NCBI GenBank assembly: GCA_963700145.1
Contig: OY969474.1
Location: 5,088,001-5,152,000, forward strand
Reading direction: 5' to 3'
From: an uncultured Acidobacteriota bacterium
GTDB lineage: Bacteria > Acidobacteriota > Thermoanaerobaculia > Multivoradales > UBA5704
Length of the DNA: 64,000 nt
The notes under the pieces were generated by a model. The model was not told where the DNA came from. It ran no database searches and was given only the letters and a program-made list of their open reading frames with translations. Shown here piece after piece: positions 7,153 to 32,025 of this stretch. The first letter of the stretch is position 1. Every line of letters begins with the position of its first letter. The position numbers were made by a program, and so were the translations under genes.

Positions 7153-7276
7153 AAAACACAGCTGTGATCTTTCAACAGGAGGTGATGATCCACTCGGTTT
7201 GAAGTGTGGGGTCTGTCTTCGGACCCCCGTTAAGGCTCTTTGAAAAACCGCTCTGAACACAAAAGGAGCCGGATCC

Positions 7277-7555
7277 ATGGATCCGCTTACGCAGTTTGGG
7301 TGGGGATTCGCTGGAAGTGTAGCCCTTGAAATCCTGCTGCTACACCGCGTGGTCAGGTCGGGAAGATCAACCCCTAGGTACTTCAGAGGCGCCCGATACT
7401 GGGTAGTCTCTCTTCTTGTTGCGGTGGTCGCTGGAACCTTGGCTGTGGCAATGCAGGTACCTACGCCGCTACTGGCAATGCAGCTCGGCATCGCTACGCC
7501 CATGATCATCAGCCGTTGGTCGAAAGAGCGCCCGCTCGCTGAGGATCGCGGCTGA
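7277..7555 (+). CDS. Small hypothetical membrane protein (92 aa)
   Basis: AAGGAG RBS, 2-3 hydrophobic segments, lower-GC DNA. Confidence 0.65.
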   Translation: MDPLTQFGWGFAGSVALEILLLHRVVRSGRSTPRYFRGARYWVVSLLVAVVAGTLAVAMQVPTPLLAMQLGIATPMIISRWSKERPLAEDRG

Positions 7556-7689
7556 CTCACCTTGAGAGCGACGGGTTCCCACCCGTCGCTCTCCCGTTTG
7601 GCCCTCCGTACAATCTATGACGGCGCACGCGGCCTTCGAGGCCGGGGGAAGCGCTGATCTAGCCGATCTACGGACGGCGCCAGCCCGGG

Positions 7690-8766
7690 TCAGTCGTGCG
7701 ACGCGGGGCCCTCCACGGGCTGCAGCCGCTCCTCGGCGGCCTTGCGCGCCGCCTCCTCGCGCGCGGCGCGCTCGACCTCCTCCTGGGCGTCGTTGTGCGC
7801 CAGCCGCGCCCGCTCGCGCTCGCCGAGGTCGACGGCGTCCTCCTCGGCGCGGGCCCGCGACTCGCGGCCGCGCAGCAGGGCCAGCGCCGCCTCGCCCTCC
7901 AGGCCGAAGAGCGAGCGCAGGTTGAGGTCGCGCTGCGGGAACGGCACCTCGAGCCCGTACTTGTCGAGCGCGGTCTCGAGCGCCCACAGGTACGCGGCCT
8001 GGACCGCGCTCGGCCGCTTGGTGGCCTCGGCCGTGAGCCAGACGACGAGCTCGAAGTCGAGGCTGCTGTCGCCGAACCCGACGAGCCAGACCTGCGGCCG
8101 GCGCGGGCCTTCCAGGGCGACGGTGAAGGGCACCTCGGCGGCCGCCTCGAGGGCGGCCTTCTTGACCAGCTCCTTGTCGCTGCCGTAGGCGATGGCGAAC
8201 GGGATGCGCATGCGCCGCGAGACGTCGCCGTGCGTCCAGTTGACCACCCGGCCGACCACGAACTCCGAGTTGGGCACCAGGATGTCGACGTTGTCGTTGG
8301 TCGAGATGAGGGTCGAGCGGATGTTGATGTCCCGCACCTCGCCGTGCAGGCCCGACTCGAGCTCGACGAAGTCGCCGACCCGCACGCTGCGCTCAAAGAG
8401 CAGGATGATCCCGGAGATGAAGTTGCTGAAGATCGCCTGCAGGCCGAACCCGAGGCCGACGCCGAGGGCCGCGGCCAGCACCGCGAAGCGGCTGGTCGGG
8501 ATGCCGAGGAAGCTCAGCGCGAGCATCACCCCGATGCCGTACAGCGCGTAGGTGGCGATGCGCGAGAGCGTGTAGAAGGCGGCGCGGCTGCGCATCTCGC
8601 GCTGCCCCGCGTGCCGCGCAAAGGCGCGCTGCATCGCCCGCGACAGCGCCCAGATGGCGAGGAAGGTGAGGACGGCGGCGATCACCCCGCCGACCGAGAA
8701 GGAGAACTGCCCCAGCTCGAAGCGGTAGGCGATGACCTGCTGGAGCTGCTCGCGCACGGAGCCCAT
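7690..8766 (-). CDS. Small-conductance mechanosensitive channel (MscS family)
   Basis: GVGLGFGLQAIFSNFISG, VRVGDFVE, VPNSEF, EVPFPQRD; ATG 8766 chosen. Confidence 0.92.
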   Translation of the reverse strand: MGSVREQLQQVIAYRFELGQFSFSVGGVIAAVLTFLAIWALSRAMQRAFARHAGQREMRSRAAFYTLSRIATYALYGIGVMLALSFLGIPTSRFAVLAAALGVGLGFGLQAIFSNFISGIILLFERSVRVGDFVELESGLHGEVRDINIRSTLISTNDNVDILVPNSEFVVGRVVNWTHGDVSRRMRIPFAIAYGSDKELVKKAALEAAAEVPFTVALEGPRRPQVWLVGFGDSSLDFELVVWLTAEATKRPSAVQAAYLWALETALDKYGLEVPFPQRDLNLRSLFGLEGEAALALLRGRESRARAEEDAVDLGERERARLAHNDAQEEVERAAREEAARKAAEERLQPVEGPASHD

Positions 8767-12881: not shown

Positions 12882-15800
12882 GGAGGGTGGTGCAGCATGA
12901 CGCGGAACCCGATCCCTCCGTCCCGCACTCCAGGGTCGTACCAGGAACGGTAAGCGCAGCGGATGTACCGAGGGGTGCGAACATACGAGCCCCCGCGCAC
13001 AATGCGGAACACGGTCGCGGGAGCCTCCAGGTCCTCCCGTCCGTCCGCCAAATCGTAGGGGTACTTGAACGCAATCTCCAGGGGGTCCTCTCCCCAAAGG
13101 CTGCGCGTCCACTCCCACACGTTGCCGGCCATCTCCTCGCAGCCGTAGGGGCTCGCGCCGCCGGGGAAACAGCCGACGGGGCTCGGCCTGCCGATCCCAG
13201 TCAACCCGAAGCTGGCGCGGTCGGCGTCCACCCAGTCTCCCCAAGGATAGATTCTGCCGTCGGTTCCCCGGGCTGCCTTTTCCCATTCCGCCTCTGACGG
13301 CAACGACACCCGCCATTCCCCATCCGCGAGGCGTTGCCAAAAGTCACGTCTCTCGCGATCCAGTGGCTCGCTCAACCGCCGGCCGGCCAGCTCGCGCAGG
13401 CGCTCTCCCAACCATCGGCAGTACGCGAGGGCGTCATACCAGGTGATGTAGACCACCGGCTGGTTCAGCAGGCCCGCGAGGCACTTGCGATTTTCGAGTT
13501 CGTACGCACTCCGCTCCACGAACTCGGCGAACTGCTGCACTGTCACCGGATAGCGTGCGAGGGCGCAGTCGGCGACCTGCACGTAGTGTGGCGCCATCTC
13601 GTCGTCGCAGGCGTCGGCGTCTCGCGCTCTGTCGCTGCCCATCAGAAAGGCCCCCGCGGGCAGCTCGACGAAGCCCAGCGCCGGCTCCCGCGGCAGGTAA
13701 CAAAGCTCCGGGTCGAAGCGGGAATCGCCCAGCCGGGCGAGGCTCGTACCCGCCTGCGCCCGCTCGATGGCAGCGAAACCGAGGCGACCGTCGCGGATGA
13801 GACGGAGGAGGAACCGCTGGATGCGCTCAAGCTTGAGCCGGTTCGGCTCGCTTACGGTCTCCAGGTCGGCCGACTCGGCTAGGAGCTGTCCGGCGAGCTG
13901 GGCTCCCCAGGCGTCCGCCGCACCTGCTGCTCGGTCGTCAGGTTCCCGCCAACAGAGCGCTTCCGCCAGGCTCCATACCGTCGCCGCAGATCGGCGGGCC
14001 TCCTTCGCTCCCGCCAACAGCACGACCTCTCGCCAGCGGTCGTGCTCCGCCCGTCCCAGCCCCGCCACCCGGTCGGGAAATGAATCTCCGGTCAGATGGC
14101 AGGCGGCCAAATATTCCTGGAAGGTGCGGTGGAGGAACGTGTACACCCCCACGCCGCGGGACTCGAGAATCCCGGCCCGGTCGCGCAAGTATTCCACCAG
14201 ACGCTTGGGATTGGCTTCCGGGTTGCGGCTCAAGTGCATTAGCAGCGCCACCAGCCTGCCCTCGTCGATATCTGCCGTGCCGGCGGCCCCCGCCTGCGCC
14301 GTATGGACCTCGTAGGCTAGTTGCTGGAGGGCCCCGCGGACCTTCTCCATACCGGTGTCCAGGAACTCCGTGAGACTCGGGTGGGGCTTCCCGTTTGTGT
14401 CCAGGGTTACGCGCTGCCTCTCCCATGAACTGAGTAGCAGCTCCAGGGCTTCGGCGTAGAGTTCCTCACGCCGCTGCGGCAGTTCGCCCCCACGCGAGGC
14501 GTGAAGGTTGGCCATCAAAGTCAGCAGCAGCGGACGCTCCGCTAGCTCTCGCAACCGGGGATTGCCGAGGATGGACCGTTCGAGCTGCGCGGCCTGCGCC
14601 GACGCATCTTTGGGTACAAGTTGTCCTTTAGCCGCTTGGTGCGCGTACCAGGCGCGAACGAAGCGGCGGATCTGGCCCGTGCCGAAGGGTGCGAGCACGG
14701 CCTCAGAGAATCCCGGCAGACGCCACCTCTGGTTGCGATAGGCATAGGAGCGGCTCGTGAGGAGCACGCGGCATTTGCCGAACCCTTCGACAAAGGCCTC
14801 GACCACCTGGCGGATCTGATCGCGCCGGGTGTCGGCCTCGGGCACCTCGTCGAGGCCGTCGAGCAGCAGGAGACCACCGCGGGTGAGCAGCTCCCGCTTG
14901 AGGAAGGTGCAATATTCACCGAAGCCGGCCTCTCGCAGATCGCGCTCGAGAGCGTCCCAGAGGTCCTGGGCCGTCGCCTTGCGGCCTCGCTCCGGAAGCT
15001 TCGTCGCGAGATGACGCAGCACGACCCGCACTGGCAGGAGAGGACCGTGGTCCCAGGGCTGTCGCTCTCTCTCGGCATGGCCCTGCTCATCCGGCAGCGG
15101 CGCTGTCAACCGTTCCAAGTTAATCCCCGGCAGGCCGAGCACCTCGCCCGCATGGCAGAGGGCGACAAAGCTCACGAACGTGCTCTTGCCGCTGCCTGGC
15201 TCTCCTAGGAGGACAAGGCGCTCATGTCGATTCATTTCCTCGAGAGCGGAGGAAGGACGAGATGCCATCCGGTCTCCCCGCTCGTCGGCGGCGGCGTGCT
15301 CGGCCCGGGTCGACAACGCAGTGTAGACGGCCTCGAGATTCAGCCGAGCTTCGGAATCGGGTGCCGGGGCGGACTCCGCTGCAGCCAGCGAAATGAACCC
15401 GGTCTGCTCCGCTACGCGCCGGAGATAGGCGTCGCGGAGGGCCGCTTCACCGGTGTCGGCCGCTGGCATGCCGCCGATGATCGTCTGATTCTCGATGAGA
15501 TCCCGCCCTGCGGCCCTGCTCAGGCCGCTGGCCACCACATTGCCTTCCCCCTGCGCCAACGCTCCCGAGCCGCGCAGCAGGACGCGGTAGTTCGTATCTC
15601 CCGGAGAGTTCGCAGCGAACAGCTGCGCCATCTCGGCGGCGAGACCCGCGTCGCTATCCAGGATTTTCCGCAGTTCGACCCGCAGCGCCGCCTTGAGATC
15701 CGGATCCTGCGGCGTCACCGAGAGATCCTGCGCCACCTCGACAGCTTGGGGCTTGGCCCCGATCAATGGCCAGAGCCTCGTCCAAAGTCTCTCGCCCTGC

Positions 15801-19379: not shown

Positions 19380-20855
19380 CTACTTCCCGACGAAGACCGA
19401 CTTGACCTCGGTGTAGTACTCCAGGGCCTGCCGCCCCAGCTCGCGGCCGAAGCCGCTCTGCTTGTAGCCGCCGAAGGGGGCGCCGGAGTCGTACCAGTTG
19501 TACTGGTTGATCCAGACGGTGCCGGCCTGCAGCGCCCGGGCCACCCGGTGCGCCTTGCCGACGTCGCGCGTCCAGACACCCGCCGCCAGGCCGTAGATCG
19601 AGGCGTTGGCCTGCGCCACCGCCTCGTCGGCGCTCTCGAAGGGGATGGCGACCAGGACCGGGCCGAAGATCTCCTCGCGCGCCACGGTCATCTCGCTGGT
19701 GACGTCGTCGAGGATGGTCGGCTGCATGAAGTACCCCTTGCCGCCGACGCTCGCCGCCTCGCCGCCGGCCACCACCTTCGCCCCCTCCCGCCGCCCGGCC
19801 TCGACGTAAGAGAGCACCGTCTCGCGCTGCTTGCCGGAGACCAGGGCCCCGAGGCGGGTCTTCGGGTGCAGCGGGTCGCCGGGCTCGAGCTTCTTCGTCC
19901 GCTCGACCAGGCGCTCGAGCAGCTCGCCGTGCACCGACTTCTCGACGAAGAGCCGCGAGCCGGCGGCGCAGACCTCGCCCTTGCCGTAGAAGATGCCGTT
20001 GTAGGCCCCCTTGACCGCGGCGTCGAGGTCGGCGTCGGCGAAGACGATGTTGGGCGACTTGCCGCCCAGCTCCAGGGTGAGCCGCTTCATGGTGTCGGCG
20101 GCGCCGCGCATCACCTGCTTGCCGACCTCGGTCGAGCCGGTGAAGCTGATCTTGGCGACGTGCGGGTGGGCGACCAGGGCGTTGCCCACCTCCGCGCCGC
20201 CGCCGGGGACGACGTTCAGCACTCCGGGCGGCAGCCCGATCTCGCTCGCCAGCTCGGCGAACTTGAGGGCGGTCAGCGGCGTGTAGGAGGCCGGCTTGTG
20301 GACCACGGTGTTGCCGCAGGCGAGAGCGGGGGCGATCTTCCACAGCGCCTGGATGAGCGGGAAGTTCCAGGGGGTGATGGCGGCCACCACGCCGACCGGC
20401 TCGCGCAGGGTGTAGGTGAGGACGAACGGGCCGTGGCTGGGCAGGGTCTCGCCGGCGATCTTGTCGGCCCAGCCGGCGAAGTAGCGCAGGGCGTCCACCG
20501 CCGCCGGCACGTCGACGTAGCGCGACTCGAAGATCGGCTTGCCGTTGTCGAGGGTCTCGAGGCGGGCGAAGTCGGCGTTGCGCGCCTCCAGGGCGTCGGC
20601 GATCTTCCACAGGAGGGTGCCGCGCTCGCGCGCCGACATCGTCCCCCAGGGTCCGGAGAGGGCCTCGCGGGCGGCCTCGACGGCGCGGTCGACGTCGGCG
20701 GCGCCGGCCGCGGCCACCTCGCAGAGCGGCTCCTCGGTGGCCGGGTTCTCGCTGGTGAAGGTGGCGCCGCTCGCGGCGTCCACCCACGCGCCGCCGATCC
20801 AGAGCTTGCAGGGGGGGAGGGTGGCGGCGGGCGCCGCCTGCGTCTCGGTCGCCAT
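19380..20855 (-). CDS. Aldehyde dehydrogenase
   Basis: PWNFP, FTGST, LELGGKSP, GEVCAAG, EEIFGPV. Confidence 0.95.
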   Translation of the reverse strand: MATETQAAPAATLPPCKLWIGGAWVDAASGATFTSENPATEEPLCEVAAAGAADVDRAVEAAREALSGPWGTMSARERGTLLWKIADALEARNADFARLETLDNGKPIFESRYVDVPAAVDALRYFAGWADKIAGETLPSHGPFVLTYTLREPVGVVAAITPWNFPLIQALWKIAPALACGNTVVHKPASYTPLTALKFAELASEIGLPPGVLNVVPGGGAEVGNALVAHPHVAKISFTGSTEVGKQVMRGAADTMKRLTLELGGKSPNIVFADADLDAAVKGAYNGIFYGKGEVCAAGSRLFVEKSVHGELLERLVERTKKLEPGDPLHPKTRLGALVSGKQRETVLSYVEAGRREGAKVVAGGEAASVGGKGYFMQPTILDDVTSEMTVAREEIFGPVLVAIPFESADEAVAQANASIYGLAAGVWTRDVGKAHRVARALQAGTVWINQYNWYDSGAPFGGYKQSGFGRELGRQALEYYTEVKSVFVGK

Positions 20856-21679
20856 CAGTACCCCTTGAAGCGGGGCTGCCGCTTCTCGACGTAGGCGTTG
20901 AGCCCCTCCTTGGCGTCCTCGCTCTGGAAGAGCTGCTGCTGCAGCTCGCGCTCGAGGGCGAGGGCGGTCTCGAACGGGATCTCGGCGCCGGTCTGCACCG
21001 ACCGCTTGATCCGCCCCACCGCCTTGGCGGCGCGCTGCGGCGGGCAGAAGCTCTTGGCGAAGGCGTGGACCTGGTCGAGGAAGGCGCCGCCCTCCTCGGC
21101 GTAGACGTGGTTGACGATGCCCAGCGCCTGCGCCTCCTCGAAGGAGATGAGCTGGCCGGTCGTCATCAGCTCGATCGCCTTGCTCTTGCCGACGATGCGC
21201 ACCAGCCGCTGGGTGCCGCCGGTGCCGGGCAGGACGCCGAGGGTGATCTCGGGCAGACCCACCTTGCCGGCGTCCTTCTTCGCGATCCGCAGGTCGGCGG
21301 CCATGGCGATCTCGAGGCCGCCGCCGACGGTGTGGCCGTTGAGGGCGGCGACGACCAGCTTCGGGGTCTGCTCGAGGCGGTTCAGGGTCTCGTTGGCGTG
21401 CAGGCAGAAGTAGTACTTGAAGACCGGATCGGCGCCCTGCAGCATCGAGATGTTGGCGCCGGCACAGAAGAACTTCTGGCCGGTGCCGGTCAGGACCAGG
21501 ACGTGGACGTCGGGGTCGAAGCGGGCCTCCAGGATGGCCTCGTCGAGCTGGCGCATCATCTGGTGGGTGTAGGTGTTGGCCGGGGGATCGTCGAGGGTCA
21601 GGTAGGCGACGCCTTCCTTGACCTCGTAGTGAACGAGCGTCCGCGTCTCGGTGCGCTCGGCAGTGGTGGGCTGAGCCAT
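20855..21679 (-). CDS. Crotonase-family protein resembling the N-terminal domain of BoxC
   Basis: FCAGANISML, FKYYFCLHANET, GGGLEIA, LPEITLGVLPGTGG. Confidence 0.8.
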   Translation of the reverse strand: MAQPTTAERTETRTLVHYEVKEGVAYLTLDDPPANTYTHQMMRQLDEAILEARFDPDVHVLVLTGTGQKFFCAGANISMLQGADPVFKYYFCLHANETLNRLEQTPKLVVAALNGHTVGGGLEIAMAADLRIAKKDAGKVGLPEITLGVLPGTGGTQRLVRIVGKSKAIELMTTGQLISFEEAQALGIVNHVYAEEGGAFLDQVHAFAKSFCPPQRAAKAVGRIKRSVQTGAEIPFETALALERELQQQLFQSEDAKEGLNAYVEKRQPRFKGY

Positions 21680-21785
21680 TGGTTCTCCTCCAGTCGAGAT
21701 CGCTAGGGGTGAATCGGGGCGGGTCCGCCCCGAAGGTCGGAGCCATTGTGCCACGCCGGACCGGCCGGACCCAAGAGCCGGCGTC

Positions 21786-23822
21786 TCAGCGGGCGGCGGC
21801 GGCCCGCGTGTACCTGGCGCGCAGCAGCTCGTTGATCCGTTCCTGCAGCAGCGGGAAGAGCTCGTGCTCCTTCTGCACGAGGGCGCGGAGGTAGGCCTCG
21901 TCCACCGGCAGGTCGAGTCCCTTGTGGCCGGCCCACTCGCTGGGCAGCCGCTGTCCTTTGGACCGATTGGCGAGCGGGCTCAAGGCTTCGAAGTTCTCGG
22001 TCGTGTTGAGCACCCGGAGCTGGTCCGCCTGGTCGAGCTGGGCGAACCCCGGCAGCTCCCGGATGCGGTCCACGGGGATGATGTGGTCGGCCTGCGCTGC
22101 GCCGTCGACGATTCGCCCCGGGAAGGCGGGGTCCGGCGAGCCGACGGGGAGCTTCCGCTGCGCCCACTGGCGGAGCTGCCGGGTCGGACTCTTGCCGCGG
22201 ATCCGCTTCCAGAGCTCGGCGAGCGGGATGCCGTGGAGCGACTCCTCGCGCACGACGCGCCGGCCGCCGGTCGGTCCGGTCAGCTCGGTTCCGGGAGGGA
22301 CGATCCCGTTGTCTTCGAGCTGGCGCAGGCGGGCGAGCTGCTGCTCGCGCTCGCGCTTCCGCTGCGTCGCCTCGCCGACCTCGCGCGGCCGGCGACGTTG
22401 CGGGCCGCTCTCCAGTCCCGTGACTTTGGAGGTCGAGCGGGAGGCCGGCGGCGTGCCGCGGGTGTGGCCGAGAGCCTCCAGCGGCGTCTCCAGCTCGACC
22501 GGGGCCGCGTTCTCGGCGCTGCCGCGGGAGAGGCCGCGCCCCTCGTCGGTCGGCGTGAAGCCCCGCTCGGGGAGCGCCTCGCCGGCCGCCCGGGTCTCCC
22601 GTGCGGCCTCGGCCTCGCGCGCCACTTGCCGCGGCGCCGCCACGCCCGGATCCAGCGTCCGCTCGGCGGCGGTCACCGCCTCGAGCGCTTCGGTCGTCAC
22701 CTCGGTCGCCGCTTTCGTCTGGCGGTAGAGACGCACGCCGGCGCCCAGGAACTGCACCGCCGAAAGGAGCGCCGCCGCGCCGGCGAGCAGGGCGTCGCCG
22801 TAGTCGCTCGGCCGGTCGGTCAGGGGCCGCCCTTCGCGTAGGGCCGAGGCGGCCGCCGCCATCTGGTTCTCCTGCGCGCGCTCGTAGGCGCGGTAGGCGG
22901 CCATGCCCGAGATCGCCGTGTCGAGGGCCACGAGCACGACGCCGACCGGCCCGGCGACGACCACCCCCGCCACCGCCACGGCCATGCCGGCGGTGAGGAA
23001 GAGCTGGTCCCATACGTCCTCGCTGCGCAGGCGGGCCTGCTCCACCATGAAGCGCGCGAAGAGCTGAGGGTCGATCGCCGGGTGGCCGAGCAGCCCCAGC
23101 TCCGCGAGGCCGCTCAAGACGATCGGGGGGTAGCGCCAGACGTGCTCGTGGGAAGCCTCCAGGCTGGCGCCGAAGCGGTCGATGCCGCTGCGGGCGTCGA
23201 GGAAGACGCCGTCGAGCGTGGCGCGCGCCGCCTCCTCGCCGTCGGCGAGGGAGCGGAAGATCTCGAGGCGGCGCGGGTGGGCGCCGAGGATGCGCGCCAG
23301 CTCGTCGTCGAGCAGCGCCGCCGCTTCCCGCTCGCGCGCCTCGCGCGCCGCCGGCGGCTCGAACTCCTGGCCGGCCGGGGCCCGCCCCCCCACCTGGACC
23401 GGGAACTTGATGACCTTCGCCGGCAGCGCGGCGAGGACCTGGAAATACTGCGTCGCGGCGCCGCGCAGCCCGGCGAGGGTGCCGGGCTCGCGAAGCCGCG
23501 CCTCGAGGCGGTCCAGCGTGACGCGGTGGTCGTCGAGCGTCGTCCTCAACCAGGCGAGCGCTTGGCGCTGGGTCGCCTCGGCCAGGGGGACGAGGTCGGC
23601 GAGGTAGGCGAGACCGCTCGTCTCCGGCGACGGCGCGCGGTAGACCCGCGACAGGACGGCGCTCCAGAGCGCGGCGAAGGGGGCCCCGGCGGCGCTGCGC
23701 GGGAGGGGCGCGAGCTTGGCCTCGCCGTAGGCGATGCGCGCCACCTCGACGAGCCGTGCGGCAGCCGCCGCGAGGTCGAGCGGTGTCCCCCGCTCGCCGT
23801 TGCCGATGAAGGGGGCCGACAA
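21786..23822 (-). CDS. Polymorphic-toxin-like protein with central hydrophobic hairpin and C-terminal HNH-type nuclease
   Basis: ADHIIPV...N..NFEALS..ANRSKG; hydrophobic AGMAVAVAGVVVAGPVGVVLVAL; TTG start with GGAG. Confidence 0.7.
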   Translation of the reverse strand: MSAPFIGNGERGTPLDLAAAAARLVEVARIAYGEAKLAPLPRSAAGAPFAALWSAVLSRVYRAPSPETSGLAYLADLVPLAEATQRQALAWLRTTLDDHRVTLDRLEARLREPGTLAGLRGAATQYFQVLAALPAKVIKFPVQVGGRAPAGQEFEPPAAREAREREAAALLDDELARILGAHPRRLEIFRSLADGEEAARATLDGVFLDARSGIDRFGASLEASHEHVWRYPPIVLSGLAELGLLGHPAIDPQLFARFMVEQARLRSEDVWDQLFLTAGMAVAVAGVVVAGPVGVVLVALDTAISGMAAYRAYERAQENQMAAAASALREGRPLTDRPSDYGDALLAGAAALLSAVQFLGAGVRLYRQTKAATEVTTEALEAVTAAERTLDPGVAAPRQVAREAEAARETRAAGEALPERGFTPTDEGRGLSRGSAENAAPVELETPLEALGHTRGTPPASRSTSKVTGLESGPQRRRPREVGEATQRKREREQQLARLRQLEDNGIVPPGTELTGPTGGRRVVREESLHGIPLAELWKRIRGKSPTRQLRQWAQRKLPVGSPDPAFPGRIVDGAAQADHIIPVDRIRELPGFAQLDQADQLRVLNTTENFEALSPLANRSKGQRLPSEWAGHKGLDLPVDEAYLRALVQKEHELFPLLQERINELLRARYTRAAAAR

Positions 23823-23849
23823 TCGACGCGCTCCGGGTCGCTCGGGCGC

Positions 23850-26408
23850 CTAGCCGTCGTCGTCGTCGTCGTCGCCGTTGTCGCCGCCGCCGCCGGCGGG
23901 CGGCGACGGCTCGTCGCCGACCGCGTCGTGCCAGGCGGCGTGGTCCCCGGCCGACCCGGCGCCGGCGCCCACGACGATCACCTTGGCGATGTCCGGGTCG
24001 TAGGCGGCGGGCTCGTCGAGGAGGGCCTGACGCCGCTCGTTCTTGGCCTCCGCCGTCCTGAGGTCCGCCCAGGCCTTGAGCACGTCGATGTAGCGGTGGG
24101 CCCGCTTGAAGGGCTCCAGCGCGGCCCCCTCGCCGGCGTCGATCCGCAGGTAGAGGTTGTTGGAGTCCACCAGGAACCGCCGCGTGCCGTTGCGGCGGTA
24201 GAGGTAGAGGGCGTACTCCTCGACGCTCAGCGCGCCGCGGGCCAGCCGGTCGGGAGCGTAGGCGACGAGGCCGTCCGGCCGCGCCAACGGCTTGCCCAGC
24301 GCCGGGAGATAGGAGAGCACGTCGATCACCAGGTCCTGCGGCGGCGCCGCCAGCAGCGCCGGATTCTGCGCCGCGACCTCCTGCGCCTCGTGCCGGAAGG
24401 CGTCGAGCGCCGGATCGCGCAGCCGCCGGTCCGGCCCGACGTAGGGACCGCGCAGGATGGCGAAGACGTGCTCCAGGCGCAGCGGTGGGAACGGGAAAGG
24501 ATCGACGTGCCCGCCCGGCACCTCCACTTCGAACGCCGGCTCGCGGCGCGGCCCTTCGGGCAGCGCGTGCACGGCGAAGACGGCGTAGTTGCCGACGAAG
24601 CCGAGCGGCCCGGTGGGATCGATCAGCTCCCAGAGCGGAGCGTCGCCGCCGGCCGGTGCCCAGCCCCCCTGGAAGTCGGGCAGCCAGGCCAGCGGCACGC
24701 GCCGGTTCTCCTTCTTGTAGCGCAGCATGCGCTGGTCGGCGTCCTCGTGCGCCCAGATCGCCCGGCAGTAATGGAGGACGTGGTCGCGCAGGTGCCGGCG
24801 CAGCCGCCCCCGCCGGATGCCGCGCAGGCGGTTGGCGCGGTCGCGGGCGGTGGAGTCCTGGAGGTGCTGACGGAAGGCGCGGAGGGGCTCGGCGTAGATG
24901 TCGGGGAGGGTCAGCGCCTGGTTGGCGGCGGCCGCCTCGTTGAACTGGGCGAACTTGCCGGTGGCCGTCTGGAGCATGCCGCGGAACGGGTTGTCGGCGG
25001 CGCCCGGGGCGACCCCGAGCGCGTCGTCCTCCTCGACGTCCTGGATCAGCTCGTTGAGCACCGCCCGCAGCGACTCGTCCAGCAGCGCCTTGGCGAGGAT
25101 CCAATCGTGGCGCCGGATCCAGGCGTCGTCGATCTCGCCGGGCGTGGGGACGTGCTCGGCGACGAAGAGGACCGACTGTACCTCGCCGAGGTAGGTCCAG
25201 ACCTCGTACTGGTGCTGCATGCGGTGGTACTCGTAGGTGATCGCGATCTCGTTGTTGGGGTTGACGATCTCCGAGGAACTCTCGTGCTCGACGGTCTCCT
25301 CGGCCTCGGTCGAGACCACGACCTTCGTCTCCCGCCGCATCTTGCTCGCGGTCTTCTGCATCGACTCGCTGAGGTGCGAGCTGGTGCGGCGGCTCTTCTC
25401 CTCTTGGTTGCCGCCGAGCGTGGTCTGCGACCGGGCGCCGATGCCGAAGAACTTGCCTTCGACGGTGAGGTCCTGGTTCCAGCGGAAGGTGTCGCTCGCC
25501 TCGCGCACGACCTCCGAGGAGTCCTTGGTCGAGTCGGTGGTCTCGGTCGTGGTCTCGGCGGCGGTGACGGTCTCGAGCGTGCTGACCTGCTTGCGGCGGC
25601 GCACGATCTTGGTCACCACCCGCTCCCGCTGGCCGGGGCCGAGCGGGACGGTGCGGACCACCTCCCCCTTCTGCCGACCCAGCGGCCGCCAGTGCTGGCG
25701 GTAGACGATGCGCAGCCCGAGGTTGATCGAGCGCGGCGGGAAGATTTCGAAGGGGTGGTCGGAGGCGACCGGGTCGGGCTCGAGGGAGGCCAGCGCCGCC
25801 TTGGCCAGGTGGTCGAACTCGACGAGGAAGTTGAGCAGCGGAAAGGGCTCGTTGTAGGGGAAGAACGGGCGCCAGTCCTCGATCTTCCGCAGCAGCGCGC
25901 GGTAGAGGAGGTCCTCGAGCGTGGCGGCGTTGCCGCCGCGGCTGGTGAGCTCCGCATACGCGCTCAGCAACTGCGGCAGCGCGGCGTCGCGCAGCCCATG
26001 GTCCCGGTGGCGGAAGTAGATCGTGTCGAGCAACGTGTGCAGGACGGCACGGCGGCGGTCCCAGTAGACGAGGTCGCGGATCGCTCGCCAGGCCGCCCGC
26101 TCGATGATCAGCAGGAGCCCGGTGACCTGGGCGAGCTGCGCCTCGGAGGCGCCGTTCTCTTCGAGCGGGCGGAGGTAGAGCAGCGACTCGTCGGTCAGCC
26201 CCGCGGCGGCGTCGCCGGCCGCCTCTGCCGGCGTCTCGTAGCCTTGCCCGACCGGCAGCAGGAAGTCGTAGAAGGCGAAGTCGTGGACGGCGACGTCGTC
26301 GAGCGTGTGGTGCGAGAGATCCGGCGGGTCGAGCGTTGGCCGCAGGCGCCCCAGCTCCTCCGCGAAGTGGCCGAGGTCGGTGCCGGGTCCTGCGTTCTCG
26401 GCGGGCAT
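23850..26408 (-). CDS. Large hypothetical protein with Ser/Thr-rich beta-strand region (possible beta-pore-forming/translocon component)
   Basis: 852 aa; YRQHWRP..GEVVRTVPLGPGQ, ETTTETTDST, KFFGIGARSQT, IVNPNNEIAITYEY; TGATG coupling. ORF is solid, function is inferred. Confidence 0.6.
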   Translation of the reverse strand: MPAENAGPGTDLGHFAEELGRLRPTLDPPDLSHHTLDDVAVHDFAFYDFLLPVGQGYETPAEAAGDAAAGLTDESLLYLRPLEENGASEAQLAQVTGLLLIIERAAWRAIRDLVYWDRRRAVLHTLLDTIYFRHRDHGLRDAALPQLLSAYAELTSRGGNAATLEDLLYRALLRKIEDWRPFFPYNEPFPLLNFLVEFDHLAKAALASLEPDPVASDHPFEIFPPRSINLGLRIVYRQHWRPLGRQKGEVVRTVPLGPGQRERVVTKIVRRRKQVSTLETVTAAETTTETTDSTKDSSEVVREASDTFRWNQDLTVEGKFFGIGARSQTTLGGNQEEKSRRTSSHLSESMQKTASKMRRETKVVVSTEAEETVEHESSSEIVNPNNEIAITYEYHRMQHQYEVWTYLGEVQSVLFVAEHVPTPGEIDDAWIRRHDWILAKALLDESLRAVLNELIQDVEEDDALGVAPGAADNPFRGMLQTATGKFAQFNEAAAANQALTLPDIYAEPLRAFRQHLQDSTARDRANRLRGIRRGRLRRHLRDHVLHYCRAIWAHEDADQRMLRYKKENRRVPLAWLPDFQGGWAPAGGDAPLWELIDPTGPLGFVGNYAVFAVHALPEGPRREPAFEVEVPGGHVDPFPFPPLRLEHVFAILRGPYVGPDRRLRDPALDAFRHEAQEVAAQNPALLAAPPQDLVIDVLSYLPALGKPLARPDGLVAYAPDRLARGALSVEEYALYLYRRNGTRRFLVDSNNLYLRIDAGEGAALEPFKRAHRYIDVLKAWADLRTAEAKNERRQALLDEPAAYDPDIAKVIVVGAGAGSAGDHAAWHDAVGDEPSPPAGGGGDNGDDDDDDG

Positions 26409-27364
26409 CAGTCGTCTCCTCCCTCGCCTTCCGGGGCCGGCGGGGCGACCACCGGCCGGCGCGTGCGGTACCAGGTGTAGAGCGGGCCGGGACCGGCTCC
26501 GCCGCCCGCGGCGGCCGCCGCCTCGGGACCGGTCTCGGGCGCGGCGAGCGCCGCCGACGAGCGCGGCACCAGCAGGTGCACGACCCGGCGCTCGGGATCG
26601 AGCTGGAACGCGGCCCCGCCGGCGGCGGCCAGGGCGGCGTCCGGCTCGGCCCAGCGGACGCCGCCGAAGGCCACCGGTTGGGGTGCTGCTCCGGCGCCCT
26701 CGCGGAAGCGGAAGCCGCGCGTCTCGGGGTCGTAGGCCAGAGCGGCTCCGGGTGCGACGTCGCGGCCGTGGACATGAACCGGAGCGCGGAGGTCGAACCC
26801 GAGGGGTGGGCGGGGGCGCTGGGCGGGCTCGCCCCGCGGGCGATCGGGCACAGGGGCCGGTCGAGCAGGCCGGTCGTCCGGCTCGCCTGCCGCGCCGCGT
26901 GCCGGTGCCCGCAGGGCGCGCATCCGCGCCAGGAGATCCGCGCTCGCGGCCGCCGCGGCCTCCTGCGCGCCGCCCGGCGGCACGGCGCCGGCGGCGAGGA
27001 GGCGCGCCGAGCGGACGCGGAGGAGGAGCTCCTCCTCGGCGCCGGCCGCGGGCCGCAGAGGGTGGGAGCGGTGGAGGGGGTGCGACGTGACGAACGGCTC
27101 GTCCTCGGGCGCCTGCACCTCGAGAGCGACGGCCGGAGACGCGCCGAAGAGCCTGCGTCGCGGCGCGTAGCGCAGCTCGAAGCGGCCGTCGGCCCCGGTG
27201 AGCGCCGAGCCGAGACGCCGGCCGCGCTGGACCGGCGCCTCGTCCTCCGGGCCCTCCTTGGCGTTCCGCGCCGCCCCGGCCTCGATCTCGTAGGCGACGA
27301 CGAGAAGATCGGGCAGCGGCGCTCCGCTCTCCCGCACCACGACTCTGCCCCGCAAGGTCTGCAT
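26408..27364 (-). CDS. Hypothetical protein with N-terminal transthyretin/carboxypeptidase-regulatory-like domain
   Basis: LRGRVVVRESGAPLPDLLVVAYE...LGSALTGADGRFELRY. Confidence 0.6.
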   Translation of the reverse strand: MQTLRGRVVVRESGAPLPDLLVVAYEIEAGAARNAKEGPEDEAPVQRGRRLGSALTGADGRFELRYAPRRRLFGASPAVALEVQAPEDEPFVTSHPLHRSHPLRPAAGAEEELLLRVRSARLLAAGAVPPGGAQEAAAAASADLLARMRALRAPARGAAGEPDDRPARPAPVPDRPRGEPAQRPRPPLGFDLRAPVHVHGRDVAPGAALAYDPETRGFRFREGAGAAPQPVAFGGVRWAEPDAALAAAGGAAFQLDPERRVVHLLVPRSSAALAAPETGPEAAAAAGGGAGPGPLYTWYRTRRPVVAPPAPEGEGGDD

Positions 27365-27471
27365 CCGCGGCCCCTCCCGCACCCGCGGCGCTCCGCGCCG
27401 CGGCTCCGTGCGCAGTCCTGTCCACGTCGCCGCTACAGGCGACGCGGCGGGCCGATCGTTACGAGGGGGGC

Positions 27472-28548
27472 TTAGCCCCCGATTTCCATGAAGCTGACGA
27501 GGTTGCCGTAGTTGCCCTGGGTGAGCATGTGCTCGGCGGGCTTCTCTTCCAGCAGGCGGAGGATCTCGGCCTCCAGGGCGGCGCCGGGGTCGGCGGCGGC
27601 GAGGAGCGGGCGGAGGGGGTCGACGCGGTCGGCGAAGAGGCAGAGGCGGAGCTCGCCGCGCGAGGTCAGGCGCAGGCGGTTGCAGTCGGCGCAGAAAGTG
27701 TGGGAGAGCGGGGTGATGAACCCCACCGCGCCGGCCGCCCCCGGGATGCGGTAGGCCTTCGCCGGCCCGGTCCGGTGGTGCGGGGTGGCGAAGGGCACGA
27801 GGGCGCCGTGGCGGGCCTCCACCCGCGCCTTGACCGCGTCGGCCGAGAGGAACCGCCCCGGCTGCAGGTGCCGATTGCTCGCCGTCGGCATCATCTCGAT
27901 GAAGCGGACGGTGAGCGGGCGGGTGAGCGTCAGGTCCACCAGGGCGTCGAGGTCCGCCGGGTCGCCGTCGGCCAGGAGCACCGCGTTGAGCTTGACCGGG
28001 TCGAGCCCGGCCGCCAGCGCCGCCTCGATCCCCGCCCAGACCTCCGACAGGTCGCCGCGCCGGGTCACCTCCCGGAAGCGCTCCGGGTCGAGGCTGTCGA
28101 GGCTGACGTTGACCCGGTCCACCCCGGCCGCCTTGAGCGGCGCGGCCAGCCGCGCCAGCTCGGTGCCGTTGGTCGAGAGCGAGAGGTCGTCGAGGCCGGG
28201 CAGGGCCTTCAGGCGGCGCGCGATCTCCAGGATGTCCTTCCGCACCAGCGGCTCGCCGCCGGTCAGCCGCACCCGCCGGATCCCCAGCCGCACCAGCGCG
28301 CCGACCATCGTCTCGATCTCCTCGGGCGCCAGGAAGTCGCGGTCGCCGAAGGGGAACTCGGCGTCCTCGGGCAGGCAGTAGGTGCAGCGCAGGTTGCAGC
28401 GGTCGGTGACCGAGACCCGCAGGTAGGTGAGCCGGCGCCCGAAGGCGTCGACGAGCCGCGTCGGGTCGGCCTCCGCCGCGGGCGGGGCGACGCGCGGCGG
28501 CGCCCCCGGCAGGGGGGGCGTGGCGCGGAGGACGGGGAGGCGGCTCAT
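27472..28548 (-). CDS. moaA: GTP 3',8-cyclase (molybdenum cofactor biosynthesis)
   Basis: YLRVSVTDRCNLRCTYC, TGGEP, FCADCNRLRLT, C-terminal IGG. Confidence 0.96.
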   Translation of the reverse strand: MSRLPVLRATPPLPGAPPRVAPPAAEADPTRLVDAFGRRLTYLRVSVTDRCNLRCTYCLPEDAEFPFGDRDFLAPEEIETMVGALVRLGIRRVRLTGGEPLVRKDILEIARRLKALPGLDDLSLSTNGTELARLAAPLKAAGVDRVNVSLDSLDPERFREVTRRGDLSEVWAGIEAALAAGLDPVKLNAVLLADGDPADLDALVDLTLTRPLTVRFIEMMPTASNRHLQPGRFLSADAVKARVEARHGALVPFATPHHRTGPAKAYRIPGAAGAVGFITPLSHTFCADCNRLRLTSRGELRLCLFADRVDPLRPLLAAADPGAALEAEILRLLEEKPAEHMLTQGNYGNLVSFMEIGG

Positions 28549-28681
28549 GCTCGGGTTCCTGTGCCGCGATTCTACTCGCCGCAGGCTATTTGTCGCGTAA
28601 AGCGGCGCGAGCGGCACCTCAGTGTAGAATCCCCCGAGCGCAGTGTCCCCGCACGACGCACCCCCCGCCAGACCAGCCCGC

Positions 28682-29470
28682 ATGATCACCGGGTACAACA
28701 CCGACGTCCGTCACAACGACGTCCTCTTCCACGTCCAGACCGAGGACAAGGGGGTCGGCAACCCGCTCATCGAGAGCCTGGTCTACGTCGGCGGTCAGGT
28801 GCTGGCGAGCAAGCGGACGAGCTACGCCGACCTGCTGGCGGAGGGGAAGGACGAGAAGTCGGTCATGGCGATGATGGACCACCAGCACCGCACCATGATC
28901 GCGGCCATCCGCCACGGCAAGTTCGCCGACAAGGTGGGCGAGGGGCACCTCGACCGCTCGCCGGCGCCGGTGCCGCTCGACGCCGCCCCGGCGCCGCCGC
29001 CGCTGCGCTCGGCGGGCACCGGCCCGCTGGTCCGTCCCGCCGGGCTGGGCACCGGCCCCCTTGTGGCGCCGCCGCCCCTCGCCCCTGCCGTCCCACGCCC
29101 CCCGGCCGCCGAGCGCGCCGCGGAGCGCTCGCTCGACCAGGTGATCCTGGAGTACCTGACCAACGAGGCGGACCAGGAGCAGCTCTTCCTCTCGGTCGAG
29201 GGGGACTCCGACCTCGCCGCCGGGCGGCGGGTGGAGCTGGCGCTGCGCGCCCAATCGAGCAAGAGCGGCCAGCCGGTGCCCGGGACGCAGGTCTCGGTGC
29301 GGATGATCTCGACCGTCGCCGAGCCGCGCGCCCTGGCCGCCGGCCGCACCGACGAGCGCGGGGCGGTGGCCCTCGCCTTCGAGATCCCGGCGCTCGGCCG
29401 CGGCACGGCGGCGCTCATCATCACCGCCGTCTCGCCGATCGGGCGCGCCGAGCTCAAGCACCTGCTTTGA
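28682..29470 (+). CDS. Conserved hypothetical protein
   Basis: GYNTDV...FHVQTEDKG N-terminal domain, Pro-rich linker, beta-rich C-terminal domain. Confidence 0.75.
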   Translation: MITGYNTDVRHNDVLFHVQTEDKGVGNPLIESLVYVGGQVLASKRTSYADLLAEGKDEKSVMAMMDHQHRTMIAAIRHGKFADKVGEGHLDRSPAPVPLDAAPAPPPLRSAGTGPLVRPAGLGTGPLVAPPPLAPAVPRPPAAERAAERSLDQVILEYLTNEADQEQLFLSVEGDSDLAAGRRVELALRAQSSKSGQPVPGTQVSVRMISTVAEPRALAAGRTDERGAVALAFEIPALGRGTAALIITAVSPIGRAELKHLL

Positions 29471-29679
29471 GCACCATCCTGCTCAACGGCGAAGCCCGCC
29501 CGTTGACTCCCGGCGCCAGCGTCCTCGACCTCGTCACCGAGCTGGGCCGCCATCCGCGCGCCGTGGCGGTCGAGCTCAACGGCGCGATCCTGCCGCGCGA
29601 GACCTGGGCCGACCGGCGCCTCGAGCCCGGCGACCGCGTCGAGATGGTGCACTTCGTCCAGGGCGGCGGCAAGGAATAG
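29467..29679 (+). CDS. thiS: Sulfur carrier protein ThiS
   Basis: LNGE, VAVELNG.I, GDRVEMVHFVQGG; TTG overlaps upstream TGA. Confidence 0.85.
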   Translation: MSTILLNGEARPLTPGASVLDLVTELGRHPRAVAVELNGAILPRETWADRRLEPGDRVEMVHFVQGGGKE

Positions 29680-29737
29680 CGCGGTGCCGGCCGGCGTTGA
29701 GCGGGCGGAGGGAGTGCGTGTACACTCCGCCGTCGCT

Positions 29738-29813
29738 GGGCCGCTAGCTCAATTGGTAGAGCAGCAGACTCTTAATCTGCGGGTTCGGGGTTCGATTCCC
29801 TGGCGGCTCACCA
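29738..29813 (+). tRNA. tRNA-Lys(CTT)
   Basis: 76-nt cloverleaf, anticodon arm cagactCTTaatctg, GTTCGA, 3' CCA. Confidence 0.95.
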
Positions 29814-29843
29814 TCCCCATCCCGACCCGTCCCGGTCCAACCT

Positions 29844-29932
29844 GCGAAAGTGGCGGAACTGGCATACGCGCTAGACTTAGGATCTAGTCCCGAGCGATCG
29901 GGTTGGGGGTTCGAGTCCCCCCTTTCGCACCA
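29844..29932 (+). tRNA. tRNA-Leu(TAG)
   Basis: Anticodon arm ctagactTAGgatctag, long variable arm, GTTCGA, 3' CCA. Confidence 0.95.
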
Positions 29933-29982
29933 ACCTTCCGTTCACCCGTTCAGCGAGCCCGGCATCGCATAGGATCGTTTCG

Positions 29983-31272
29983 ATGAGCGTCGTGGTGTCC
30001 GTCGAGGACGTTGGCCCCTGCCGCAAGCAGCTCAAGATCGCCGTGCCGGCGCCGGCCGTCGAGGCCGAGACCGAGCGGGTGATCCAGGACATGGGCAAGC
30101 GGGTCAAGATCCCCGGCTTCCGCAAGGGGAAGGTGCCGGCGGAGCTGGTGCGCCGGCGCTATCAGAAGGACATCGAGCACGAGGTCGTCGAGCGGCTGCT
30201 GCCGCGCTACTGGCGGCAGGCGCAGGCGGAGAGCGACATCGACCCGCTGCTGCCCCCCGAGGTGGACGAGGTCGAGGAGCTGCAGCCCGGCCGCGACCTC
30301 ACCTTCACCGCCACCGTCGAGACCCGGCCGCGCATCGAGCTGCACGGCCTGAGCGACTTCGACCTGCCGTCGCCCGAGGTCGAGCCCGGGACGGTGGAGA
30401 TCGAGGAGGCGCTCGAGGACGTCCGCAAGCAGGTCGGCACCTGGGTGCCGGTCGAGCGGACGGCGGCGCGCGGCGACCTGGTGAGCCTGGAGGTGCGCGA
30501 GGCGCGCCCCGAGGGCGAGTGGTCCGAGCCGCAGGCGACCGAGGTGGAGCTGGGCGACCCGCGGATCTGGGAGGAGCTGGCCCTGGCCGTCACCGGCCTC
30601 GGCGCCGGCCAGGAGACGACCTTCACCCGCCGCGAGCAGCACGGCGACCACGAGCACGAGAAGAGCTACCGGGCCGCCGTCGTGGCGGTCAAGGAGCGCG
30701 ATCTGCCGCCCCTCGACGACGAGCTGGCGACCCGCGTCAGCCCGGAGCTGCAGAGCCTCGAGGAGCTGCGCTCGGCGCTGGTCGCGCGCCTGCGGGCGCA
30801 GAAGACCGAGCAGCGACGCGAGGAGCGGCAGAAGGCGCTCCTCGACCAGCTCCGCGAGCGGCACCCGCTGGAGCTGCCGCAGCGGGTCGTGGACCGGGAG
30901 GTCGAAGGGCTGGCGCGCGACTACGCCGAGGGGCTGGTGCGGCAGGGCGTCGACCTGGAGCGCTCGCGGATCGACTGGCAGGAGGTCACGGCCGGCCTGC
31001 GGCCGCTCGCCGAGCGCCGGGTCCACGCCCGGCTCCTCCTCGACGCCGCCGCCGAGTCCGAAGGCGTGGCGGTCGAGGAGACCGAGTTCGAAGGCTTCCT
31101 CGCCGCCCTCGCCCGGGCCCAGGGAACTTCGACCCCGTCGTTGCGCAAGGCCCTCGACGAGCAGGGCCGCCTGGAGACCCTGCGCGGCCAGCTCCGCCGC
31201 GACAAGACGATGCGCCACCTGCTCGGCGAATTGCCGGCGCCGGCCGAGGCGGTCGCGGCCGAACCGACGTAA
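29983..31272 (+). CDS. tig: Trigger factor
   Basis: [10 protein letters not shown] signature; position upstream of clpP. Confidence 0.93.
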
Positions 31273-31295
31273 GAGAGAGGAAGGACGCAGAAAAC

Positions 31296-31883
31296 ATGCT
31301 GATTCCGATGGTCGTCGAGCAGACCAACCGAGGCGAGCGGGCCTACGACATCTACTCGCGGCTGCTCAAGGACAACATCATCTTCCTCGGCCGCGGGGTG
31401 GACGACGACACCGCCAGCCTGATCATCGCCCAGATGCTCTTCCTCGAGGCCGAGAACCCGGAGAAGGACATCTCGCTCTACATCAACTCGCCGGGCGGCT
31501 CGATCAGCTCCGGCATGGCGATCTACGACACCATGCAGTACATCAAGCCGGACGTCGCCACCTACTGCGTCGGGCAGGCGGCCTCGATGGCCGCGGTGCT
31601 CCTCGCCGCCGGCGCCAAGGGGAAACGGACGCTCCTGCCCAACAGCCGGGTGCTGATCCACCAGCCCTGGCTCTCGGGCCTCCAGGGGCAGCAGTCCGAC
31701 ATCGAGATCCACGCCAAGGACATGTTCATCATGCGCGACCGCATGGACGAGATCCTGGCCTTCCACAGCGGCCGGACGAAGGAGGAGGTGCACCGCGACA
31801 CCGAGCGCGACCGCATCCTCTCGGCGACGGAGGCGGTGGAGTACGGGCTGGCAGACCGCATCATGGTCCGCAAGCGGGCCTGA
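31296..31883 (+). CDS. clpP: ATP-dependent Clp protease proteolytic subunit
   Basis: [24 protein letters not shown]. Confidence 0.97.
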
Positions 31884-31910
31884 GCAGCGCCCGCCAAGTC
31901 CGCGCAAACC

Positions 31911-31937
31911 CCGGCCGGGAATGGGCTTTCCGGCCGG
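31911..31937 (+). terminator. GC-rich hairpin between clpP and clpX
   Basis: ccggccggga-atgggct-ttccggccgg; no clear U-tract. Confidence 0.35.
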
Positions 31938-32025
31938 CCGCGTTGTATGCAGGTAAGGTTGACAGAGCCTGGGATCACCCCTAGCATCGACTTGCCTGTC
32001 CCCCCGATCCCAGACGGAGGAGTAA

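Follow-up and report, generated by a model that had tools for sequence, protein, structure and literature searches.

Polymorphic toxins are classed by the way in which they are trafficked, i.e., by type V, VI and VII systems, contractile particles, Tc toxins, outer-membrane exchange and umbrella particles. Tc (ABC) toxins and extracellular contractile injection systems (eCIS) are multi-gene systems without signal peptides, carry exchangeable tips, often have no immunity genes and are released by lysis. Pore formers of the aerolysin family and of the PA type use a stem-forming loop, i.e., an insertion in which polar tracts surround a segment of strictly alternating small-hydrophobic and polar residues, and bacterial gasdermins act as suicide pores in anti-phage defence. 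Here, we describe a three-gene locus at positions 21786-27364 of a 64,000-nt stretch of DNA (the window; contig OY969474.1 of assembly GCA_963700145.1) from an uncultured Acidobacteriota bacterium. It combines a polymorphic toxin (gene 3) with a conserved protein of 852 amino acids (aa; gene 2) that may form a channel, and ties a carrier family with swapped tips to a conserved partner outside all of these trafficking routes.

All three genes are co-oriented on the minus strand and encode proteins of 318, 852 and 678 aa. Gene 1 covers 26408-27364 in the translation used here (an alternative GTG start is found at 27382), gene 2 covers 23850-26408 and gene 3, which starts with TTG, covers 21786-23822. 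Genes 1 and 2 share a TGATG stop/start overlap (26406-26410, read on the minus strand) that is preceded by GGAGGAG, and 27 nt separate the TAG of gene 2 from the start of gene 3. GC content is 0.67-0.82 across the region; since all three proteins have relatives elsewhere, they are not chance open reading frames (ORFs) of a GC-rich genome. A first-pass annotation, made from the sequence alone, had listed the three co-oriented genes with their TGATG junction, a Ser/Thr/Glu-rich run with an amphipathic segment in the 852-aa protein, and a hydrophobic hairpin, a low-complexity linker and a DHIIP...N...N.SKG tip in gene 3. Coordinates and overlap read as it had given them, the features are all present (the amphipathic segment being residues 308-333), and its report of no signal peptide, RHS, VgrG, PAAR or CdiA agrees with our screens by Pfam, NCBIfam and a hydrophobicity heuristic, which found none.

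With regard to the origin of the locus, blastn places the flanks 19380-21759 and 27473-32000 only 29 bp apart in a same-genus genome (G004; L049) and about 184 bp apart in a genome of another genus (G006; L050). Since the flanks are contiguous in both, the segment 21760-27472, i.e., 5.7 kb with the three genes and no other, was gained between moaA and the operon of an enoyl-CoA hydratase, which bears out the insertion between a catabolic operon and moaA that had been proposed earlier. No clear direct repeat was seen at the junctions, and genes for an integrase or transposase are lacking from the insert. The window's genome has one copy of the 852-aa protein, which was found in none of the four same-genus genomes and occurs in 3 of 41 related genomes, namely the window's own and two with weak or distant matches. 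At the level of the phylum, the profile of the gene-2 core matches 13 of 401 sampled genomes (including the window's own and an unpublished one), and only three of the 13 matches are strong. We take it as a firm result of these sequence comparisons that the segment is a polymorphic-toxin cassette, complete in itself, that was gained by horizontal transfer and moves as a unit. A search of sequencing runs returned no RNA run and only DNA runs of soil and urban metagenomes with partial shares; the host is most likely an environmental diderm, judging from the relatives of its trigger factor.

The relatives of gene 3 show that it is built as a modular toxin, in which a carrier of about 400 residues with a predicted hydrophobic helical hairpin is followed by a low-complexity linker and an exchangeable toxin domain. 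An exhaustive HMMER search yielded 524 relatives at E <= 1e-3, which fall into two classes. Carrier-class proteins have 630-800 aa and match residues ~15-440 of the query, while tip-class proteins (100-2226 aa) match only ~535-670, nearly always with their own C-terminus. The carrier region (residues 1-400; 22623-23822, minus strand) is conserved among relatives with differing tips (alignment A3). It includes hydrophobic segments at about residues 270-310 and 340-365 (22728-23015, minus strand), where the strongest 19-mers on the Kyte-Doolittle scale reach 2.62 (282-300) and 1.87 (345-363). Of the 524 relatives, 150 were listed, and domains were scanned in 62 tip-class proteins of at least 400 aa and in 38 carrier-class proteins. 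Seven of the 38 listed carriers end in the window's tip, two in Ntox4, and one each in Endonuclea_NS_2 and LHH; one has a sub-threshold MgtE_N match, and the rest have no recognised tip. In an alignment of five module-linked carriers and one close relative (A3), conservation extends to about residue 400 and the C-termini are unrelated in three. Tip swapping among homologous loci, which the first-pass annotation had named as a check, is thus seen in carriers that bear Ntox4, Endonuclea_NS_2, LHH or the window's tip. The carrier has no sequence or profile relative in the PDB; in the ESM Atlas it falls to a cluster without a name (0.91) and to one in which 27% of the members carry PT-TG (0.90), the latter being a lead only.

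The tip itself spans residues 536-678 (21789-22217, minus strand) and is predicted to be HNH-like. All 21 tips of alignment A6 share D579, H580, N606, N610 and N619, i.e., the DH motif and the conserved Asn of a His-Me finger are in place. Alone, the window's tip reaches HNH_4 at E 0.3 and no Pfam cut-off; among the 21 tips, GmrSD_C is matched by three (best E 2.2e-4), GH-E by two and HNH_4 by one. It also aligns weakly (E 0.28) with the C-terminal nuclease part of PDB 7p9k, which we take to be the GmrSD-family enzyme BrxU, such that the positions DH..P...N..N...K..P.EW are matched. The profile of the 21 tips finds no solved structure in the PDB. Our best reading is a remote HNH-type nuclease (His-Me finger, GmrSD_C-like), predicted from motif and weak family matches, both of which fit the nuclease tip suggested earlier.

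What this tip is attached to elsewhere supports, at the level of sequence, a genuine polymorphic-toxin domain that caps contractile-injection, type VI, type VII and contact-dependent toxins. Among the 62 listed tip-bearing proteins, 16 carry eCIS_core and six carry PAAR (four with prePAAR, one with RHS repeats). DUF4280, LXG with PT-TG, PT-TG alone, WXG100_2, DUF637 with Fil_haemagg_2, PT-HINT and a sub-threshold SseC are found on one protein each (1/62), and 33/62 have no family at E <= 1e-4.

The 852-aa protein encoded by gene 2 belongs to no Pfam, NCBIfam, PADLOC or PHROGs family, and its family profile finds no sequence relative in the PDB. NCBIfam and PHROGs yield no useful family for the proteins of genes 1 and 3 either. 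A word-indexed search gave 50 relatives of gene 2; those with a name are annotated as 'hypothetical protein', and entries from Thorarchaeota and Heimdallarchaeota are among the 50. In species-representative genomes we collected 36 loci with gene-2 homologues. They come from Proteobacteria, Bacteroidota, Planctomycetota, Verrucomicrobiota, Chloroflexota, Acidobacteriota, Elusimicrobiota and Bdellovibrionota, from metagenome-assembled genomes (MAGs) of the Gemmatimonadota type, from Bacillota (Mesobacillus and a Peptococcaceae MAG) and Actinomycetota (Streptomyces, Propionicimonas), and among archaea from Heimdall- and Promethearchaeota and Nitrososphaera. Homologues range from 850 to 1200 aa and their N-terminal regions vary by subfamily; the best-conserved part is residues 210-430, with 32-64% identity to the window in 35 relatives (alignment A2, 36 sequences). 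In bacteria as in archaea, the module is defined by gene 2, the conserved partner.

Other genomes hold a distant branch of this core, as exemplified by a 686-aa ORF of genome G038 (hhalign probability 98.8%). Genome G042 of the phylum sample carries two core copies (G042:C1, 3587956-3588573 and 4238525-4239190; E 9.6e-59 and 7.3e-55) within ORFs of 1314 and 1511 aa. The ESM Atlas places the 852-aa protein in clusters without names only, and viral contigs contain no relative of it. The only match below E 1e-3 for its whole model in a structure library is BFVD entry A0A5K0U6Q4, an uncharacterised 642-aa protein of the giant virus Yasminevirus (E 6e-6, 357 columns, TM 0.10/0.13), possibly a virus-encoded protein of related fold.

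Next to the partner itself, its linkage to a toxin was assessed in these 36 loci and the window. A complete gene-2 homologue is found in 33 of them, and 28 of these have at least 2.3 kb of downstream sequence. A co-oriented ORF of at least 600 aa starts within 600 bp downstream of gene 2 in 16/28 loci, and 13 of the 16 encoded proteins have a hydrophobic 19-mer in mid-protein. The position holds an ORF of 243-393 aa in 9/28 loci and none in 3/28. The long downstream proteins form at least two sequence-unrelated groups and several singletons; length, position and layout are what they have in common. Toxin domains at this position are Ntox4 (L010, L035, L022) and DUF2380 (L026). The window's type of carrier, checked in five genomes, is present once per genome and inside the module in all four that hold it (4/4), and a metagenome search seeded with the tip gave ten tip-bearing loci without the 852-aa gene. 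The proposal of an undescribed unit with conserved gene linkage is supported by the 16/28 loci and by the module-linked carriers of all four genomes.

Two related loci differ in detail. In Echinicola pacifica (L022:10453-12525), Ntox4 lies near the N-terminus (residues 65-121 of 690) of a downstream protein with no hydrophobic segment, which may represent a different arrangement of the toxin gene. In Marinobacterium (L009), one endonuclease gene lies on each side of the module, Endonuclease_NS at 3873-4646 and Endonuclease_1 at 14767-15495.

In the full-text literature (supplementary files and subscription journals being outside the scope) we found no description of the partner family or of the carrier, and the passages of Makarova et al. 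2019 (PMC6393860) that were covered do not mention them. We consider it a firm result that the module is new, i.e., a polymorphic toxin on a new carrier that is tied to a new conserved partner.

Gene 1 is less widely shared. Homologues lie directly upstream of the gene-2 homologue in eight loci (L001-L005, L007, L022, L025), and another upstream family of 346-411 aa takes this position in four; neither family is fused to the long forms of gene 2. Fusion of gene 1 to longer gene-2 homologues was considered and rejected: the gene-1 profile matches no long form, and the CarboxypepD_reg domain of one of them (P0051) is C-terminal. In an Opitutales locus (L034), the gene-1 homologue is in two pieces (5435-5980 and 7318-7866) with an opposite-strand DDE transposase gene (6093-7328) between them; a fragment of an IS3-type integrase follows the toxin gene of the same locus. 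The N-terminus of gene 1 looks like a beta-sandwich of the transthyretin/CarboxypepD_reg kind. The earlier label 'transthyretin-like' stands as far as the look of the alignment and a sub-threshold match to CarboxypepD_reg go (residues 3-65; E 0.05, 14.4 bits vs. a cut-off of 32.3); nothing rises above a cut-off, none of the eight homologues matches the family at E up to 0.01, and the gene-1 profile has no PDB relative. Since gene 1 is conserved independently of the tip, a role as immunity protein is unlikely. It could be a lineage-specific accessory subunit, possibly a beta-sandwich for adhesion or assembly.

We then asked what the partner protein might be by predicting its structure. The AlphaFold2 model of all 852 residues (mean predicted local distance difference test (pLDDT) 69.7; predicted TM-score 0.55) consists of a helical N-terminal domain, a beta core and helical/mixed C-terminal domains. 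The conserved core (residues 210-430; 25119-25781, minus strand) is predicted to hold four strands of about 30 residues; when folded alone (pLDDT 63.6), strands of 27-30 residues are placed at domain positions 19-47, 52-81, 144-173 and 181-207. Within the core lies an insertion of about 95 residues rich in Ser/Thr/Glu/Lys (residues 274-370; 25299-25589, minus strand), a candidate stem-forming loop. Here, Ser/Thr/Glu/Lys tracts surround a Gly/Ala/Ser segment in which small-hydrophobic and polar residues strictly alternate in most family members. This segment, a putative amphipathic beta-hairpin (residues 308-333; 25410-25487, minus strand), shows the alternation in alignment A2; averaged over the alignment, the beta-periodic hydrophobic moment is highest at residues 310-318 and again at 327-331. 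That is, an amphipathic hairpin flanked by Ser/Thr-rich tracts, the layout of pore-former stems, is present at the level of sequence and prediction.

Structural comparisons point in the same direction. Most structures that Foldseek lists, both for the whole protein and for the domain, are pores of the aerolysin family and of the PA type. For the whole model against the PDB, nothing is found at E <= 1e-3; the best rows are Cry35Ab1 and the aerolysin prepore (both 1.2e-2) and Tpp80Aa1 (1.3e-2), followed by Cry78, BinAB, parasporin-2, monalysin, epsilon toxin and leukocidins. For the domain model, the aerolysin pore (5.7e-3, query-normalised TM-score 0.17) and the lysenin pore (9.1e-3) are best, and parts of the tails of phages Andhra and phi29, the epsilon-toxin pore, CDTb and the PA pore are also listed. 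VIA, an aligner independent of Foldseek, finds only four chains at Z >= 2 for the domain, the best being the tail of phage P68 (Z 3.5, root-mean-square deviation (rmsd) 7.8, 77 aligned) and the lysenin pore (Z 3.3, rmsd 13.6, 117 aligned), and for the whole model only helical-bundle rows (Z <= 7.3). When Foldseek rows are given a second alignment, the model's hairpin falls on CDTb 316-378, Ib 315-377 and PA 279-347 with Z 3.1-3.5. Since the searches agree in direction and not in strength, we take a pore-former fold as suggested rather than established; i.e., the models suggest a beta-barrel pore former. Of the aerolysin/PA-like pore proposed in the first-pass annotation, the sequence pattern, the long-hairpin layout and the direction of the weak matches thus stand, and a significant match does not.

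Three points lead us to favour a role in delivery, in which the partner of the polymorphic toxin would be a beta-barrel channel former: the insertion resembles a stem, the weak structural matches consistently point the same way, and the tip comes from the pool of exported toxins. This is our leading reading, held tentatively and somewhat short of probable. The beta core of gene 2 would oligomerise, and the insertion with its amphipathic hairpin would refold into the long stem of a beta-barrel, as in aerolysin and the B components of binary toxins. The stem could form a channel or breach the membrane, such that the toxin reaches the target cell through or beside it, and the toxin's own hydrophobic hairpin might help the nuclease across the last membrane. 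Since no component has an export signal, release would have to be non-classical, e.g., by lysis as for Tc toxins and eCIS; and in the absence of an immunity gene, the producer would have to hold its nuclease in a sequestered or inactive form, with sequestration as in Tc toxins. A more general form of this proposal is possible but doubtful: the 852-aa family would be an envelope-independent, PA-like or aerolysin-like translocase with a self-inserting polymorphic cargo, i.e., a 'binary polymorphic toxin' with neither secretion system nor immunity protein that is shared by bacteria and Asgard/Nitrososphaera archaea.

Several observations weigh against delivery by a pore former. No structural match is significant (best E 5.7e-3; VIA Z <= 3.5 with large rmsd), and the query-normalised TM-scores of the domain model are at most 0.23. 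Residues 274-298 and 304-370 have pLDDT < 50 in the whole-protein model, and the insertion is below 50 in both models, despite being among the best-conserved sequence of the family (A2). In Pfam, the 852-aa protein matches nothing at E up to 1 except for a chance Aconitase_C row, and in particular no pore-former family. Two gene-2 homologues start with a zinc ribbon, which is typical of cytoplasmic proteins, and the positive flank after the last hydrophobic segment of gene 3 suggests a tip that faces the cytoplasm. With respect to the classical form of a polymorphic toxin system, gene 1 is confined to one subfamily and is not a universal component. The long downstream gene is absent in 12/28 loci, and the two main carrier groups A and B have no detectable relation (hhalign probability 1%).

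The remaining counterpoints concern immunity and export. No cognate immunity gene lies directly downstream of the toxin, and none is conserved there in its relatives. The syntenic hydratase gene comes next and begins just 31 bp after the toxin's stop, which leaves no room for one; of 15 related loci, only four have a small co-oriented ORF behind the toxin, and one of these encodes an isochorismatase. Candidate immunity ORFs in close coupling with the same tip, seen in metagenome loci (218, 149, 229 and 311 aa), have no relative in the window's genome. Among kin the tip is rare, being present in 2/401 genomes of the phylum sample including the window's own. A signal-peptide-like 12-mer, sought by a hydrophobicity heuristic in the first 80 residues, is found in 0/34 gene-2 and 0/9 gene-1 homologues, in 0/4 members of the other upstream family and in 0/19 long downstream proteins. 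None of the three proteins has a secretion or trafficking marker in Pfam or NCBIfam (PAAR, RHS, LXG, TPS etc.), and among 120 flanking ORFs scanned there is no component of type V, VI, VII or contractile-injection systems. The 'binary polymorphic toxin system' of the first-pass annotation holds with regard to the module and its swapped tips, while the lack of an immunity gene, of an export signal and of a universal gene 1 speaks against its classical form.

These absences can also be read as marks of an intracellular conflict system, e.g., anti-phage abortive infection, in which the 852-aa protein is a cytoplasmic sensor and/or suicide pore and gene 3 a membrane-tethered effector with a swapped toxic domain. 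No component examined carries an export signal and no immunity gene is conserved; the latter would not be needed because the effector is inactive until infection. The zinc ribbons at the N-termini of two gene-2 homologues and the cytoplasmic tip suggested by the positive flank would fit, too, as would the autonomous two- or three-gene module and its patchy horizontal spread over bacteria and archaea of every envelope type. With regard to the neighbourhood, mobile-element genes lie near the module in four loci (L017, L024, L032, L034), and defence-type genes lie within ~3 kb in 4/36, i.e., a SIR2_2 gene (L005:8418-9104), an NgoPII restriction-modification pair (L025:13043-14962), an AbiEii gene (L027:5081-6046) and an Eco57I-type methylase gene (L030:3379-5034). 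However, defence neighbours are limited to these four loci and the module's neighbours are mostly housekeeping genes. Compared with PADLOC-DB 2.0, the three proteins match 0 families at E up to 1. Within the module, no domain of an NTPase, of a protease or for sensing nucleic acids was recognised, and the tips come from the exported-toxin pool (eCIS_core, PAAR, RHS, LXG and CdiA-type). The module's absence from the viral contigs searched speaks neither for nor against defence. Overall, we rate the intracellular system as rather unlikely, though a serious contender. The absent immunity gene, the absent export signal, the zinc ribbons and the range of envelope types would fit a defence module almost as well as delivery.

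A further reading places the 852-aa protein on the producer's side, as a ring or tube that exports the toxin or as a shell that sequesters it like the Tc cocoon. The weak matches to tail parts of phages P68, phi29 and Andhra and to models of the flagellar MS/LP-ring would agree with it, residues 1-210 and 430-800 form a helical/mixed scaffold that has no counterpart in pore formers, and sequestration would explain the missing immunity gene. Since the module has no recognisable membrane-energising or ATPase partner, no transmembrane segment is found in the 852-aa protein, and monoderm, diderm and archaeal hosts are hard to square with an export machine that spans the envelope, we consider it improbable. 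Mere adjacency, i.e., gene 2 as an unrelated structural protein next to a stand-alone toxin or degenerate remnant, could draw on the absent or short downstream partner in 12/28 loci, on gene 1 occurring in one subfamily only and on carrier groups A and B being unrelated by profile comparison, yet it is very improbable given three genes in one insertion with 27-nt and overlapping junctions, the long co-oriented downstream gene of the same layout in 16/28 loci and carrier relatives that sit only in the module in 4/4 genomes.

Should the partner be a beta-barrel translocase, the pore formers would gain a new branch and toxin delivery a new route. With an action inside the cell, the module would instead be a new defence system that joins a pore-like protein to tips of exported toxins. 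Either way, carrier and partner families that had no names gain a testable role. Experiments are possible since six cultured isolates hold the module, namely Echinicola pacifica DSM 19836, Aquimarina sp. SS2-1, Mesobacillus maritimus ADH-29, Marinobacterium nitratireducens, Celeribacter sp. HF31 and Paralimibaculum aggregatum.

Some features around the cassette and elsewhere in the genome are noted here. Between the stop of moaA and the start of gene 1, the window has a 7-bp inverted repeat at 27425-27444 (stem 27425-27431 / 27438-27444, 6-nt loop); it lacks a T-run and might act as a weak terminator or attenuator on the upstream border of the insert. Just past moaA lies a trigger factor gene (29983-31272) whose closest named relatives are from Thermoanaerobaculia (62-72% identity), and the host is accordingly placed in Acidobacteriota. 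About 5 Mb from the window, a weak match to Phage_sheath_1 (G000:C1:116311-116766, L072; 24 bits vs. a cut-off of 31.4) could belong to a prophage or a contractile-particle locus.

Finally, we compared the module with the known systems. By analogy with bacterial gasdermins, gene 2 may be a cytoplasmic pore former without export signal, encoded in a small mobile module without immunity; unlike them, it has no gasdermin fold, no associated protease and no PADLOC match, and the tip of its partner is drawn from the exported-toxin pool. With GmrSD_C (formerly DUF1524) HNH/His-Me finger nucleases and colicin-type DNase tips, the toxin tip shares the pattern DH...N...N...N.SKG and five invariant polar residues, whereas its sequence stays below every Pfam cut-off and the profile of 21 tips is without a solved structure. 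The likeness to eCIS lies in the tip, which is common on eCIS_core proteins (16/62 listed). In contrast to Tc toxins and eCIS, no RHS cocoon, TcA-like protein, sheath, tube or baseplate gene is found in or beside the module, and the genome has no VipB. Ntox4, which Zhang et al. 2012 (PMC3482391) list as a toxin delivered by the Photorhabdus virulence cassette (PVC), is also found on carriers related to gene 3.

As in polymorphic toxin systems, gene 3 has a conserved N-terminal part and a variable C-terminal toxin domain, and its tip is common to other trafficking classes; it differs from them in that no immunity gene follows the toxin, the carrier has no known trafficking domain and the partner is an 852-aa protein without a family name. 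Similar to the pores of the aerolysin family, PA, CDTb and Ib, gene 2 is predicted to have long antiparallel strands and a Ser/Thr-rich insertion with a central amphipathic hairpin. Compared to aerolysin and PA pores, it has neither a significant sequence or structural match nor a signal peptide, its beta core sits inside a mostly helical protein of 850-1200 aa, and the family is also archaeal. Like binary toxins, the locus is predicted to pair a pore-like protein with an enzyme; unlike PA, CDTb and Ib systems, the cargo brings its own hydrophobic hairpin and an exchangeable tip.

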